Below are positions 44,590 through 57,163 of a stretch of DNA of 64,000 nucleotides, one piece after another. Below the pieces are notes generated by a model, which ran no database searches, was not told where the DNA came from, and saw only the letters and a list, made by a program, of their open reading frames with translations. Source of the stretch: Escherichia phage Turkey5. The position numbers and the translations under genes were made by a program. Position 1 is the stretch's first letter. Each line of letters starts with the position of its first letter. Where the stretch lies: sequence record PQ471516.1, one strand, 5' to 3'.

Positions 44590-45114
44590 ATGAAATATAC
44601 AGTACTGTCAGCACAAGACACAGAGATATGGCTGGGTAACGTATTAAAAACACTAATGGTTATAAAGAAGTTGATTTCATCTATCGGTGCTATTGAGACT
44701 AATCTCAAGAAAGATATCTTAAATGACTTCCACCGAAACGCGTACATGAAGTTCTACTCCAACATGTTCTATGGACTTTATGATGCTGATGATATCTGCA
44801 TTTTTCCAAGTGGGAAAGCGTGGTCATTAAATAGTGCTTGCTTCAGTGATCTAAGGTACAGTTTAACCCAAGAGCAAGTAGATGCAAGAAAATACTTGGA
44901 ACAAATAATGGATGATGGTACAATTACTTTCGTATCGGAAATCAGTCATTGCTGGAATGTCTATGCAGATAAACCATTCAATATTGACGAAGAAGATATC
45001 ATCAATTACACCCGCATCATGAGAATTCATGAATGTGTAAAAATGGCATTAAAAGATATAGGACTATACGATGAAGCATGTAACTTGGATGAAGATAGCA
45101 GAAGTAGTAGCTGA
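44590..45114 (+). CDS. Hypothetical protein
   Basis: 174 aa. Confidence 0.45.
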   Translation: MKYTVLSAQDTEIWLGNVLKTLMVIKKLISSIGAIETNLKKDILNDFHRNAYMKFYSNMFYGLYDADDICIFPSGKAWSLNSACFSDLRYSLTQEQVDARKYLEQIMDDGTITFVSEISHCWNVYADKPFNIDEEDIINYTRIMRIHECVKMALKDIGLYDEACNLDEDSRSSS

Positions 45115-45547
45115 GGAAAGTAAGTGTCTTTCCCAGCACGTAGGTTGTGTAATCGTCAATAATGACCGAGTGTTGAGTACTGGATATAATGGCACTCCAT
45201 CTAAACAGGTAAACTGCTGTGATGCAAATGCACATTTAGTACACGATGGTAAGTTTCAAGATTGGGTATCAGATGATGCAAAACATGAACACCATGAGTG
45301 GAGTAACCTTCATGAGATTCATGCTGAGATGAATGCAATCCTTTACAGTTCTCCTACAGAACGTCAAGGTGCAACACTTTACAGTACTCTCCAGCCGTGC
45401 TATACTTGTTCTAAGTTAATCGCTGGAAGTGGTATTAAGCGTGTTATCTATATGAAAAGCTACCCAAGAACTCCAGCAGAAGCTATTAAAGTACTGGAAG
45501 ATGCTGGGATTGAAGTTAACTGTATTTTTGACATGGGATTAAAATAA
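45071..45547 (+). CDS. cd: dCMP deaminase (zinc-dependent CDA fold); true start may be ATG 45086
   Basis: HVGCVIVNNDRVLSTGYNG, HAEMNAI (Zn ligand His + catalytic Glu), PCYTCSK (Zn ligand Cys pair). Confidence 0.8.
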   Translation: MKHVTWMKIAEVVAEESKCLSQHVGCVIVNNDRVLSTGYNGTPSKQVNCCDANAHLVHDGKFQDWVSDDAKHEHHEWSNLHEIHAEMNAILYSSPTERQGATLYSTLQPCYTCSKLIAGSGIKRVIYMKSYPRTPAEAIKVLEDAGIEVNCIFDMGLK

Positions 45548-45846
45548 TGATTCAAGCTTTTGTTTTTCTTGGTCTGGGGGCGTTCTTACTAATCGTGTGG
45601 GTTATTGTTGGTGCTATTATATCTGTAACGGACAGTTCACAAAAGATTTCAGGGTACGAGGTTCGTTATGAACCAAAAAACAATAAGTACTACATTGTTC
45701 GTAAATTCAAGTACTTAGAAAAAGAAGAACGAATTCGTGGACGTTTGAAGCTAACGATTTATTATAAAGATATTTCGAAAGCATCATATGTATGTGAATT
45801 ACTGAATAAAGATTACAGTGCAATTTCTGGTAATACTGAACTATAA
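45547..45846 (+). CDS. Small membrane protein
   Basis: hydrophobic N-terminus FVFLGLGAFLLIVWVIVGAII. Confidence 0.45.
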   Translation: MIQAFVFLGLGAFLLIVWVIVGAIISVTDSSQKISGYEVRYEPKNNKYYIVRKFKYLEKEERIRGRLKLTIYYKDISKASYVCELLNKDYSAISGNTEL

Positions 45847-45850
45847 AAGA

Positions 45851-45878
45851 AAAAGGAGCCTTATGGCTCCTTTTTTGT
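45851..45878 (+). terminator. Rho-independent terminator
   Basis: hairpin GGAGCCTTATGGCTCC followed by TTTTTT. Confidence 0.8.
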
Positions 45879-46081
45879 TATTTAAAAACTATGAATGTAA
45901 ATGTTAATAGAATGGTCTATTTGTGAAAAATTGGTACATTAGAAGTACTGTAATGTAGTTATATCTCACCCTGTTCGTTAAGAGATAATAAATTTAGTTT
46001 GACTTAAGGGAAACTTTCATGTATCATTACTTCATCGTCTTAGAAACACATGGCGATTGATGCACAAGTGAACTATAAGTG

Positions 46082-46110
46082 TTGACTTATGGCAAATCTA
46101 GTGATACAAT
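46082..46110 (+). promoter_or_regulatory. Sigma70-like promoter (TTGACT-17 nt-TACAAT)
   Basis: -35 TTGACT 46082-46087, -10 TACAAT 46105-46110; lies inside track ORF start, implying a downstream start codon. Confidence 0.5.
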
Positions 46111-46151
46111 GCAAGAAACAACATAAAGAGGGCAAAAAAGTGTATCGATTC

Positions 46152-46751
46152 ATGAAGGAAGTGTTTCAAGCAGTTATCGTTATGATGCTTATCAATTTCC
46201 CATGCAGTGCAGGTGTGGAACGAACAAGTGTCATGCGATATTATGAGGAACCTAATGCTCTGGTGGTTATATCAGAGTTAACGGATGGTTCTGCTGACCG
46301 TATAATCAATTTTTACGATAAGACCCCATTCAAAACATTAATCATTACATCTCCAGGTGGGAGTGTAGATGCAGGTCTGAAATTGGGTTCTTTAGTGAAA
46401 GAAAATGGAATTCAAGTGATTGTTGTAAAGTACTGCAACTCTGCATGTTCCCTCGTGTACTTCAGTTCACCGAAGGATAAGAGACTAATGGAAGATGATT
46501 CAGTACTTGGACTACATAACGTTTCAATTGAAAGCAAAGGGGGTGATGGTGATAACACTTATGTGACTATTCGACAGTTGAAGCAGTTCACAGAGGAATT
46601 GTCATCTAAAGTAGGTTTTATGTTTACGTTGTACGCCAGTAATGGTATTCCTACAAACGTACTAATGCGTATCGCAACTGCACGTGGTGATGATGTAATT
46701 GTTGTCACTAAAAAAGAATTAGAAGTTTGGGAAGCATCAATCCCTGACTGA
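46152..46751 (+). CDS. Secreted ClpP/SppA-like (crotonase-fold) peptidase-like protein; start uncertain (GTG 46140 or ATG 46152; track start 46089)
   Basis: signal-peptide-like MKEVFQAVIVMMLINFPCSAG; ClpP-like TSPGGSVDAGL block; Ser-position context CNSACS is non-canonical; His in GLHNV. Confidence 0.5.
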   Translation: MKEVFQAVIVMMLINFPCSAGVERTSVMRYYEEPNALVVISELTDGSADRIINFYDKTPFKTLIITSPGGSVDAGLKLGSLVKENGIQVIVVKYCNSACSLVYFSSPKDKRLMEDDSVLGLHNVSIESKGGDGDNTYVTIRQLKQFTEELSSKVGFMFTLYASNGIPTNVLMRIATARGDDVIVVTKKELEVWEASIPD

Positions 46752-55342: not shown

Positions 55343-55345
55343 ATT

Positions 55346-55576
55346 ATGAAATTATTGTGTATTGCTATTGTTTCTTCTATTGTATTTCTAAGTGGGTGTG
55401 CACCTAAAGTTAATGAGATGGATGCTGAACTCATCCGTCTTGGATTGACTAAACTCAATCACGATGGTACACTGTATGCATGTCATGAAATGCGTCACGG
55501 TCAAGATCTGAACTTAATGTGCAGAAAGATTGTGAATCGTAAACGTATTAATACAATCCCAAGGGATGTACAATGA
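55346..55576 (+). CDS. Small putative lipoprotein
   Basis: MKLLCIAIVSSIVFLSGC lipobox-like signal peptide. Confidence 0.5.
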   Translation: MKLLCIAIVSSIVFLSGCAPKVNEMDAELIRLGLTKLNHDGTLYACHEMRHGQDLNLMCRKIVNRKRINTIPRDVQ

Positions 55577-55794
55577 AAGCAAAAGAATTAGCAGAATTAC
55601 TGTTACAACATCCTGACGCAGAAGTTATTGTTTGTGATGAAGAAATGTTTTTAGTTAATGCGTCTAAAGTAACGGTTTATGAAAAAGATGAGATGATAAA
55701 AGAAGGTGATGGTAGTACCAAATCGGAAGACCTTACTTCTCTTGGAATCTACGATTATCCAATTTGTAATACACAAGTTATTTTTATTTCATGA
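55573..55794 (+). CDS. Hypothetical protein
   Basis: 73 aa, 4-nt overlap. Confidence 0.4.
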   Translation: MKAKELAELLLQHPDAEVIVCDEEMFLVNASKVTVYEKDEMIKEGDGSTKSEDLTSLGIYDYPICNTQVIFIS

Positions 55795-55801
55795 GGAAAC
55801 T

Positions 55802-56161
55802 ATGAGTGATTATGTTGGATTCCTATACCGCTTTGGTGTTGCACAAGAAAAACACATCATCCGTATGCCAGCATATGGTGAGAAAGGATGGTATAAGAGT
55901 ATTATCAGTGTAGGTGCATTTCGTGACCGTGAAGCAGCATACTTCCTTAAGAGTCTCAGTGATGAACCTATTCGCTTCTCACTTCAGCGTTTATCAGAAT
56001 GGGAGGAAAGTAATAAAATCACAGCAGAATCAATGCAAGCCGTATGTGGTATTCAAAATTATGTCCATCCATATGACAATCTTCCTTGTACTGTGCATAA
56101 TTCAGTGTTTGACTTTTATGCAGCAGTAGGGTATGATTATAAAAAGAAACGTTACATTTGA
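55802..56161 (+). CDS. Hypothetical protein (start at ATG 55802 after GAGGA RBS)
   Basis: ~119 aa. Confidence 0.45.
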   Translation: MSDYVGFLYRFGVAQEKHIIRMPAYGEKGWYKSIISVGAFRDREAAYFLKSLSDEPIRFSLQRLSEWEESNKITAESMQAVCGIQNYVHPYDNLPCTVHNSVFDFYAAVGYDYKKKRYI

Positions 56162-56180
56162 ATTTCAATGGGGATTTAAA

Positions 56181-56798
56181 ATGACAGCAGCCGACAAGTA
56201 CTGGTGGATTTACAACCACGCCTCATTCGTCAACAAAGATTTAGTATATCCAAAGATTGAGATTGAACCACATAACGTATGCCCTGATACCAATCGCATT
56301 GAAGACCATGAATATCTAAATACAAAGGTTCAGTACTGGGTAGAGTTGATGACCCCTGAATTCGATGAAGATTCACAAAACTGGATTCTTTCACACGATT
56401 ATCAGTTAGATTGTGGCGGCGATACATTTGAAGAAGCAATTGATGCATTGTACAATAAGGTTTTGGAACGTTACGGTACATACAAACAAGAAGATGCAGA
56501 TGCTTTATTTGATTCATTGTTTAAAAAATCATCACAGCCAAATCCAGCATACCAGCAATTTAGCAATCCACATGAACGATTGTACAGTGCTAAGTTTCTG
56601 TTGTTGAATTACGATGACAAGTTCTCGCTGATTGATAGCATAGATACTCGTAAAAATACAATAAAGTCCTTGCAGAAGTACATTGCTTCTTGTACAATAG
56701 AGCAATCAGAGAAAGCAAAGATTGCATTAGAAGATGAAGAATGTTTGCTTTGGTTACAAGAACTATCACTTAAAACAGGCGTGGATTTATTACTATGA
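56181..56798 (+). CDS. Hypothetical protein (start uncertain; track start 56133)
   Basis: ~205 aa. Confidence 0.45.
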   Translation: MTAADKYWWIYNHASFVNKDLVYPKIEIEPHNVCPDTNRIEDHEYLNTKVQYWVELMTPEFDEDSQNWILSHDYQLDCGGDTFEEAIDALYNKVLERYGTYKQEDADALFDSLFKKSSQPNPAYQQFSNPHERLYSAKFLLLNYDDKFSLIDSIDTRKNTIKSLQKYIASCTIEQSEKAKIALEDEECLLWLQELSLKTGVDLLL

Positions 56799-57163
56799 AC
56801 AGTAAACTGGAAAAACTAATTGAAGAACTTCGACGGATGCCACCAATTGAGCAAGTTGGCAATTACAAGCGTTATCGCGTTATAGCACGAGCACTGGATA
56901 AGAAAGGTCGAGTACTGGCAACTCGTACCAACTCTTATACACAAACTCATCCTAAACAGAAAGGGTTTGCGATTCGTGCTGGACGTCCACAAGGTGAGTT
57001 TCTTCATGCTGAAATTTCATGTTTACTGGCTGCACGGGCTGATGTACATACACTGTTGATTGCACGAGTGAGTAAAGATGGCATTCCAGTCCCAGCCAAA
57101 CCATGTGAGATTTGCACTTTAGCTATTCAAGAATATGGAGTGAAAGAAATTATTCACACATGA
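56795..57163 (+). CDS. Small CDA-fold deaminase-like protein (putative zinc-dependent nucleotide/nucleic-acid deaminase)
   Basis: HAE (FLHAEISC) followed ~35 aa later by PCEIC, the H-[AC]-E ... P-C-x-x-C zinc-binding signature. Confidence 0.55.
   Translation: MNSKLEKLIEELRRMPPIEQVGNYKRYRVIARALDKKGRVLATRTNSYTQTHPKQKGFAIRAGRPQGEFLHAEISCLLAARADVHTLLIARVSKDGIPVPAKPCEICTLAIQEYGVKEIIHT

Follow-up and report, generated by a model that had tools for sequence, protein, structure and literature searches.

We describe here a 122-residue protein, open reading frame (ORF) B (56795-57163, plus strand), which is encoded in a 64,000-nucleotide stretch of Escherichia phage Turkey5 (PQ471516.1); this whole stretch is referred to below as the window. 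Motif conservation and a structural model together show that ORF B is a real protein of the cytidine deaminase (CDA) fold with a complete and strongly conserved predicted catalytic set, i.e. a His, two Cys and the proton-shuttle Glu. Profile comparisons place it in the dCMP-deaminase branch of the CDA superfamily, as a minimal, stripped-down offshoot, and it is neither a canonical dCMP deaminase (dCD), nor a TadA, nor a cytidine deaminase. As for its function, we consider it about an even call that ORF B would be a catalytically competent, zinc-dependent cytosine deaminase acting on the deoxycytidine-nucleotide pool, beside the T4-type dCMP deaminase (Cd) that is encoded by ORF A (45071-45547, plus strand, 158 aa) in the same window.

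The window has a GC content of 35.6% and is ~99% identical by megablast to Escherichia phage vB_EcoM_JNE01 (JNE01), a RaK2/PBECO4-like jumbo myovirus of 355 kb. ARAGORN found no tRNA or tmRNA genes in the whole 64 kb. The zinc signature of the CDA fold was screened for with the regular expression [HC][AS]E-x(15-60)-PCxxC in all stop-to-stop ORFs of at least 50 aa, and only ORF A and ORF B matched among the 358 ORFs of the window. Both also pass the gathering threshold of Pfam PF00383 (25 bits), ORF A with 78.9 bits and ORF B with 29.5 bits (E=6.9e-7), so a chance match to the motif can be ruled out. The original prediction, made from the sequence alone, that the window carries two CDA-fold deaminases is thus borne out, with both ORFs on the plus strand and exactly at the positions given. 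Between the two proteins the similarity is remote (26% identity over 54 aa, E=0.006), therefore ORF B did not arise from ORF A by a recent duplication.

ORF A is an ordinary T4-type dCMP deaminase, as had been predicted, and the corresponding activity can be expected from its sequence. It matches phrog_174 (E=5.6e-59) and aligns from residue 1 to 150 with the T4 enzyme (PDB 1vq2, E=1.1e-33). The signature motifs are HAEMNAI (residues 84-90) and PCYTCSK (residues 109-115), with H84, E86, C110 and C113 forming the catalytic Zn1 site. A published list of the Zn2 ligands and deoxycytidine-contacting residues of T4 Cd (PMC12697855) was used for mapping further positions. The structural Zn2 ligands are all present, C19, C49, H74 and E82 corresponding to C19, C49, H94 and E102 of T4. 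Residues 38-41 read GYNG, an instance of the allosteric G(Y/W)N(A/G) motif that is the defining feature of the DCTD enzymes (PMC12088426). The isoelectric point (pI) of the protein is 6.1. Close orthologs are found in ~70 records of RaK2-like phages, and the ORF A type as a whole in 3,570 phage records.

The key residues of ORF B are H71-A72-E73, P103-C104-x-x-C107 (PCEIC, 103-107) and N46. In the AlphaFold2 model, which has a predicted local distance difference test (pLDDT) score of 95, the order of the elements is alpha1 (3-14), beta1 (28-34), beta2 (40-45), a family-specific helix (53-61), the HAE helix (72-80), beta3 (86-92), the PCxxC helix (105-114) and beta4 (118-121). The HAE and PCxxC motifs are thereby placed at the N-termini of two helices lying on a mixed beta-sheet, in the manner of the CDA fold, and they align with the zinc-ligand columns of the canonical enzymes, which agrees with the original reading of these residues as zinc ligands. 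The modelled chain stops right after beta4, at residue 122, and lacks alpha4, beta5 and the C-terminal segment, the part by which canonical enzymes close the active site; given this absence, the active site of ORF B should be open. There is no second zinc site. The allosteric motif is not kept either: the corresponding stretch is R-T-N-S-Y in ORF B and G-x-N-S-Y in the family consensus, and in an alignment of 124 diverse family sequences, from which all conservation figures below are taken, residue 45 is one of T, V and F, while 84 of the 124 have Ser at residue 47. The five residues with which the T4 enzyme contacts the deoxycytidine moiety (V24, N40, A105, E106 and P131) are all retained, as V29, N46, A72, E73 and P103.

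A search of the PDB with the single ORF B sequence returned ribosomal protein S18 and styrene monooxygenase only, both spurious, and a family profile was needed. Its best PDB matches are dCMP deaminases, namely those of phage S-TIM5 (4p9c, 1.3e-9), Streptococcus mutans (3.5e-7), human (1.4e-5) and T4 (2.2e-5). These matches span nearly the full profile, whereas those to TadA-type enzymes and cytidine deaminases are weaker and confined to the C-terminal half with HAE and PCxxC. When the family was compared by hhalign with six canonical dCDs, ORF A among them, the probability was 98.3% (E=2e-14) over 109 columns that run from alpha1 to beta4 (residues 9-122). HAE is paired with HAE, PCxxC with PCxxC, and N46 with the Asn of GYNG, and the canonical profiles run on for ~20-30 residues past the end of ORF B. 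The claim that the N-terminal half of ORF B is unrelated to that of the standard enzyme is therefore not upheld: this half is homologous. None of the curated equivalog models for ComEB/dCD, TadA and tetrameric CDA was matched by ORF B; the TadA model NF008113 gave no match at E<=1, and the tetrameric CDA model TIGR01354 scored 13.7 bits against a cut-off of 113.65.

The family of ORF B is large. Among 1.8 billion cluster representatives, 605 relatives reach E<=1e-3 and 225 reach E<=1e-10, with lengths almost always between 100 and 145 aa, and a profile search gave at least 1,242 family clusters of 100-140 aa at 90% identity. The contigs that carry them are exclusively phage-sized (up to ~440 kb), and the carriers include RaK2-like and phiKZ-like jumbo phages, cyanomyoviruses, Aeromonas phages and many uncultured viruses. 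Most members have precomputed PF00383 matches, and their automatic names are hypothetical protein, dCMP deaminase or TadA, several of the TadA names coming from JGI pipelines. E73, P103, C104 and C107 are invariant among the 124 aligned members, and N46, H52, P53, H71, A72, R91 and G96 are at least 90% conserved; for H71, A72 and N46 the figure is at least 95%, with His at position 71 in 123 sequences. The consensus reads DKKGR...N-S-Y-x-K-T-H-P-x-Q...L-H-A-E-I...R...G...A-K-P-C-x-I-C...G-I-K-x-V-x-Y-T, after which the protein ends. The segment K-T-H-P-x-Q-x-x-[YF]-A is an extra helix that is absent from the canonical enzymes; in ORF B this region appears as N46-S-Y-T-Q-T-H52-P53-K-Q55. The short C-terminus is a family trait as well, since about half of the members end within 2 aa of the end point of ORF B, and many also lack alpha1. 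A member of only 102 aa still gives a confident model (pLDDT 88.9) with four strands and three helices. Furthermore, the family is very basic: the median pI is 9.6, a pI of 9 is exceeded by 93% of the members, and a protein of ~120 aa carries a net charge of ~+9, while canonical dCDs encoded beside small CDA genes have pI values of 5.7-8.3. The phiKZ ortholog, gp260 or PHIKZ260, appears in the literature found only as an example of a transcription start site (TSS), with no function found; it has its own primary TSS, used in early infection (PMC8244752).

The genomic surroundings of the family were surveyed in an unbiased census of 80 IMG/VR viral loci, out of 392 relatives that were found with a tight sub-alignment of 18 sequences. 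No obligate neighbour family exists in these loci, the most common one being present in 12 of the 80. The recurrent neighbours are a DnaB-like helicase, T4 RNase H, DNA polymerase B (9/80), DNA ligase, UvsX, ThyX (9/80), the alpha and beta subunits of ribonucleotide reductase (RNR, 6/80), PhoH and UvdE. Seeds for nucleotide metabolism were met in 20 of the 80 loci, and seeds for RNA ligase, CCA-adding enzyme or aminoacyl-tRNA synthetase in 2, a distribution that favours the nucleotide pool over tRNA or RNA. A general link of the family to tRNA or RNA repair had been entertained, and these same counts did not sustain it. Several members do lie near such genes (loci L021/L023, 7678-8753; contig P0300; locus L008, 837-2006), in the company of a CCA-adding enzyme with an HD domain, RlaP, RtcB, RNA ligases, an RF-1 domain protein and QueC, and they may represent a sub-lineage with a different role. 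We also note that 22 of the 80 loci (between L024 and L103) have, antisense to the deaminase gene and overlapping it completely, an ORF of ~104 aa that forms a cluster across loci. This ORF is almost certainly no real gene but a shadow produced by the conservation of the sense gene.

The small protein and a canonical enzyme are found together in several settings. In RaK2-like phages the small CDA protein and the T4-type Cd are conserved together, and a canonical dCD, recognised by its G[YFV]NG motif, lies within 10 kb of the small CDA gene in 6 of the 80 census loci. In two of the loci (L070, 9992-11243; L081, 10001-11206) the canonical gene is 450-500 bp downstream of the small one, on the same strand. 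The pair is thus a recurrent feature of phages, which implies that the two roles do not duplicate each other, and the earlier suggestion of a different substrate or role for the second deaminase is plausible on these grounds, as both genes are kept across RaK2-like phages and the pairs recur in unrelated viral contigs. Other carriers have the small protein without a canonical partner. In the phiKZ-like Pseudomonas phage PA7 (267-kb record) it is the only ORF with a CDA motif and there is no canonical Cd; this phage also has thymidylate synthase, Tmk, dihydrofolate reductase and RNR, as well as a dCTP deaminase of the dUTPase fold (Dcd; TIGR02274, 159.6 bits against a cut-off of 92.8). In the PA7 annotation (locus L016, 12725-13159 and 39069-39638) the Dcd is gp150 and the small CDA protein is gp097, annotated with 144 aa and carrying an HSE variant of the motif. 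Likewise, no other CDA-motif ORF is present in the complete 116-kb genome of Aeromonas phage 2L372X, which also has ThyX, dUTPase, NrdAB and NrdD. In Carin-5 the homolog of ORF B is the only 'dCMP deaminase' listed, beside a dCTP deaminase (PMC12686479).

The genes around ORF B were also examined. Directly upstream lies an ORF of 221 aa and unassigned function (56133-56798, plus strand) that matches phrog_16370 (E=4.5e-67) and has no Pfam match. Its stop codon overlaps the start codon of ORF B (ATGA), which suggests, as far as sequence can tell, that the two are translationally coupled. Genes matched to it by position and size alone are found directly 5' of the ORF B ortholog (0-4 nt apart or overlapping) in Klebsiella phage Muenster, Cronobacter phage GAP32, Erwinia phage pEa_SNUABM_12 and one metagenomic contig. 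None of the genes next to ORF B has a Pfam assignment or an assigned function; small ORFs with signal peptides or membrane segments flank it. Downstream, 1,043 bp separate the end of ORF B from the start of nrdD (58206-60008, plus strand), which encodes the large subunit of the anaerobic (class III) ribonucleoside-triphosphate reductase and was identified from the ORF list and from the annotation in the megablast matches and in the syntenic Muenster, GAP32 and Erwinia records. It is followed by a gene for an NrdA.1-like DUF4326 protein (59953-60345, plus strand; PF14216, 87.6 bits; phrog_464) and by nrdG (60323-60793, plus strand; PF13353, 175.1 bits; phrog_626, E=2.1e-62), the radical-SAM activase of the anaerobic reductase. 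The original description of a block of lipoprotein and membrane genes therefore holds for the flanking small ORFs, but not for the supposed distance from genes of nucleotide metabolism. The DUF4326 gene, whose product resembles NrdA.1 of T4, overlaps the 3' end of nrdD by 56 nt and the start of nrdG by 23 nt, and its position between the two is kept in Muenster. The order deaminase, a few small genes, nrdD is kept in Muenster, GAP32 and pEa_SNUABM_12, and the arrangement spans four RaK2-like genera, including Alcyoneusvirus, Mimasvirus and Eneladusvirus. As functional evidence for ORF B this linkage is weak, because RaK2-like genomes are broadly collinear and the linkage is absent elsewhere.

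If ORF B acts on the nucleotide pool, it would convert a deoxycytidine nucleotide of the precursor pool into the corresponding deoxyuridine nucleotide, would do so free of feedback control by dCTP and dTTP, and would add to the dUMP-to-dTMP supply for an AT-rich genome, alongside the regulated T4-type Cd. The carriers are in general AT-rich, with GC contents of 37.0% in PA7, 35.6% in 2L372X and a median of 40% in the 80 loci. The hosts of the carrier phages are at ~51-66% GC. This pattern matches the rationale put forward for chlorovirus PBCV-1 (PMC10142491). A di- or triphosphate, dCDP or dCTP, would be a somewhat more likely substrate than dCMP, since ORF B is strongly positive and truncated, with a predicted open active site. 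Published analogies exist for both properties, which ORF B shows to an extreme degree: some phage proteins annotated as dCMP deaminase are specific for dCTP or prefer dCDP, and the site becomes open when C-terminal residues are lost (PMC12697855), and triphosphate-specific DCTD-like enzymes accumulate Lys and Arg (PMC12088426). A dCTP substrate would also fit the position of ORF B beside NrdD and NrdG, which reduce nucleoside triphosphates. Dcd-like activity on dCTP was in fact considered as the specific assignment, on the basis of the nrdD linkage, the charge and the truncation, and was downgraded in view of the bona fide Dcd of PA7 and the one listed for Carin-5. In the RaK2 genome a single dCMP deaminase was annotated by its authors, to whom the pyrimidine route was unclear (PMC3622015).

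Several points weigh against a role of ORF B in the nucleotide pool. Firstly, a dCMP deaminase would duplicate Cd in RaK2-like phages, and a dCTP deaminase would duplicate the Dcd enzymes of PA7 and Carin-5. Because of this coexistence no single nucleotide substrate avoids redundancy everywhere, and a different class of substrate therefore stays alive. Secondly, no dUTPase can be recognised in the RaK2-like phages themselves (PMC3622015), so the host Dut would be needed for a dCTP-to-dUTP step. Thirdly, even the canonical enzymes do not conserve their 5'-phosphate-binding residues (PMC12697855), so that such residues cannot be read from the sequence of ORF B, and its strong positive charge would be equally compatible with a nucleic-acid substrate. 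Finally, the linkage to nrdD is absent in the phiKZ-like, cyanophage, Carin-5 and Aeromonas contexts and in the 80 viral loci, and no biochemical study of any family member was found in the searchable literature.

The charge leads directly to the possibility that ORF B deaminates cytosine (or adenine) in a polynucleotide, i.e. in single-stranded DNA (ssDNA), mRNA or tRNA, of the host or of the phage. We regard this as unlikely, but it draws on more than the basic character of the family (median pI and net charge as given above). The lack of alpha4, beta5 and the C-terminal segment is expected from the model to leave the active site open, and deamination of ssDNA has been shown for phage enzymes that were annotated as dCMP deaminases (bioRxiv 10.1101/2024.12.05.627091). 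Rnl1 is encoded directly upstream of one member and a CCA-adding enzyme 1.4 kb from another; RtcB, RNA ligase and an RF-1 domain protein are near some members, and tyrosyl-tRNA synthetase is upstream in GAP32 and the Erwinia phage. However, neighbours of the RNA ligase, CCA-adding enzyme and aminoacyl-tRNA synthetase kind are, as the 2 against 20 of the 80 loci indicate, far outnumbered by nucleotide metabolism. A tRNA substrate is further disfavoured by the scarcity of A34, found in only 4 of 140 nearby phage tRNAs, by the absence of tRNA genes from the window, and by the comparison with TadA, as ORF B has no TadA NCBIfam match and lacks the C-terminal tRNA-binding helix, and TadA profiles match more weakly than dCD profiles and only over the HAE-PCxxC half. 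A DNA mutator would be costly to the phage, and the family is widely kept, in single copy, in replication modules. In a broader form, we would also give only a small chance to the idea that the family, with members of ~100-122 aa, is the smallest naturally active type of CDA-fold deaminase with a substrate that is neither dCMP nor dCTP, the candidates being ssDNA, RNA, tRNA or an unusual cytosine compound. Such a substrate would explain why the small protein coexists with Cd in some phage lineages and with Dcd in others.

Two further proposals concern small substrates outside the ordinary nucleotide pool. A nucleoside or free-base deaminase (for cytidine, deoxycytidine or cytosine) that salvages breakdown products would account for the lack of a recognisable phosphate-binding C-terminal region in ORF B, but it appears quite improbable. 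The first zinc ligand is His and not the Cys of tetrameric CDA and blasticidin-S deaminase, the TIGR01354 score falls far below its cut-off, and the family profile is nearer to dCD (1.3e-9) than to CDA (5e-3). Moreover, the strong positive charge would be unexplained with an uncharged substrate, and such an activity is already supplied by the host, as E. coli has Cdd. Less probable again is a deaminase for modified cytosine nucleotides (5-methyl- or 5-hydroxymethyl-dCMP or dCTP), for which phages of the Xp12 type would be the model; a modified nucleotide was one of the substrates suggested in the original reading, next to tRNA and nucleic acid. Phage dCD-like enzymes selective for 5-methyl- and 5-hydroxymethylcytosine are widespread and polyphyletic, but the known ones are linked in cis to a thymidylate-synthase homolog that methylates or hydroxymethylates dCMP, 70% of them within 3 kb (bioRxiv 10.1101/2024.12.05.627091). 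No such dCMP-modifying homolog is encoded near ORF B, and the recurrent neighbour of the family is ThyX and not a ThyA variant. RaK2 DNA does show signs of methylation, but RaK2 lacks dCMP hydroxymethylase and glucosyltransferases, and the methylation was ascribed to DNA methyltransferases (PMC3622015).

A non-catalytic partner or regulator, for instance in a hetero-oligomer with Cd like that of ADAT3 with ADAT2, might be imagined from the adjacency of small and canonical genes in some phages and from a truncated fold that might need a partner to complete the substrate site, but this is highly improbable, as the whole catalytic set, with the proton-shuttle Glu, is invariant in the family while inactive partners such as ADAT3 and the N-terminal domain of CDADC1 have lost their catalytic residues (PMC12088426), and PA7 and 2L372X, with the small protein as their sole CDA protein, have no canonical partner to offer.

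A few other genes of the window deserve mention. A same-strand cluster (48963-52389) comprises SIR2 (48963-49730), a Nudt16-like NUDIX hydrolase (49727-50278), a cREC_REC 'cyclic-phosphate processing receiver' protein (50291-50611), a small membrane ORF and a PIN_4+PhoH ATPase (50950-52389). A related metagenomic contig (L005) has SIR2, cREC_REC and PIN-PhoH in this order too, and we speculate that the cluster could be involved in NAD/ADP-ribose or RNA-end metabolism, possibly in counter-defence. The sole minus-strand gene of that stretch (47124-48032) encodes a 302-aa protein with two tandem Big_2 Ig-like domains, the two repeats having almost the same sequence (SKTSSNGPIGG...TVDGS). The protein is encoded upstream of SIR2 in L005 as well. 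Lastly, a 220-aa protein (46089-46751) has an N-terminal hydrophobic segment and a weak match to the ClpP family (22 bits, cut-off 20.2), and, going by these features, may be a membrane-anchored serine protease.

The practical outcome for the window is a corrected annotation, together with caution in transferring the name 'dCMP deaminase' to ORF B, all the more as phage proteins with this label have been shown, one by one, to cover activities on dCTP, dCDP, 5-methyldeoxycytidine nucleotides and ssDNA. The family itself, uncharacterised and with many members of unusually small size, already has its genes in the databases, under loose and inconsistent annotation, and its likeliest function is ordinary metabolism. 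What sets it apart is a full catalytic site on a truncated, four-stranded and strongly positive core of only ~100 residues. Knowledge of the substrate of ORF B would clarify how pyrimidine pools are rebalanced in AT-rich phages and explain why some phages keep two CDA deaminases, and it could possibly yield a very compact deaminase for biotechnology. Should the family turn out to act on polynucleotides, it would provide an unusually compact scaffold for base editors, and phages would have an activity on nucleic acids, of the host or their own, that had so far gone unrecognised.

It is useful to compare the general features of the ORF B family with the known deaminases of the CDA superfamily. 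The canonical dCMP deaminases (DCTD, T4 Cd and S-TIM5 dCD; 1vq2, 4p9c, 2hvv and 2w4l) have in common with ORF B the CDA fold, the HxE and PCxxC motifs and the Asn after strand 2; like them, the family keeps the contacts to the deoxycytidine moiety and occurs in replication and nucleotide modules of phages. The differences are equally clear. The canonical proteins are 135-195 aa long (protomers of ~20 kDa) and consist of a five-stranded core followed by alpha4 and a C-terminal segment, whereas the family members have 100-122 aa and end after beta4. In addition, the family is without the allosteric motif and the second zinc, possesses an extra helix, and has a pI of ~9.6 instead of ~6.

A second group for comparison are the CDA-fold dCTP and dCDP deaminases (the Dcd enzymes of PBS1 and PhiR1-37, the Xp12 deaminase, the bi-DCD of PBCV-1, 7fh4, and human CDADC1, 9hfq), which, like ORF B, are derived from the dCD branch, and of which 7fh4 and 9hfq are among the fold and profile matches of ORF B. 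Truncation and a very basic character in ORF B recall the shortened C-terminus or the Lys/Arg enrichment of these enzymes, but they keep the five-stranded core and at least 140 aa, and ORF B shares nothing specific with them beyond the core of the superfamily. TadA likewise has HAE, PCxxC and the conserved Asn, yet it binds the anticodon arm of its tRNA through a C-terminal helix, alpha5, while the model of ORF B has no helix after beta4; TadA also needs a tRNA with A34, which only the few phage tRNAs counted above near family members would provide. Finally, the homotetrameric cytidine deaminases and blasticidin-S deaminase carry Cys-Ala-Glu and an antiparallel beta4-beta5 hairpin, as opposed to the His-Ala-Glu of ORF B.

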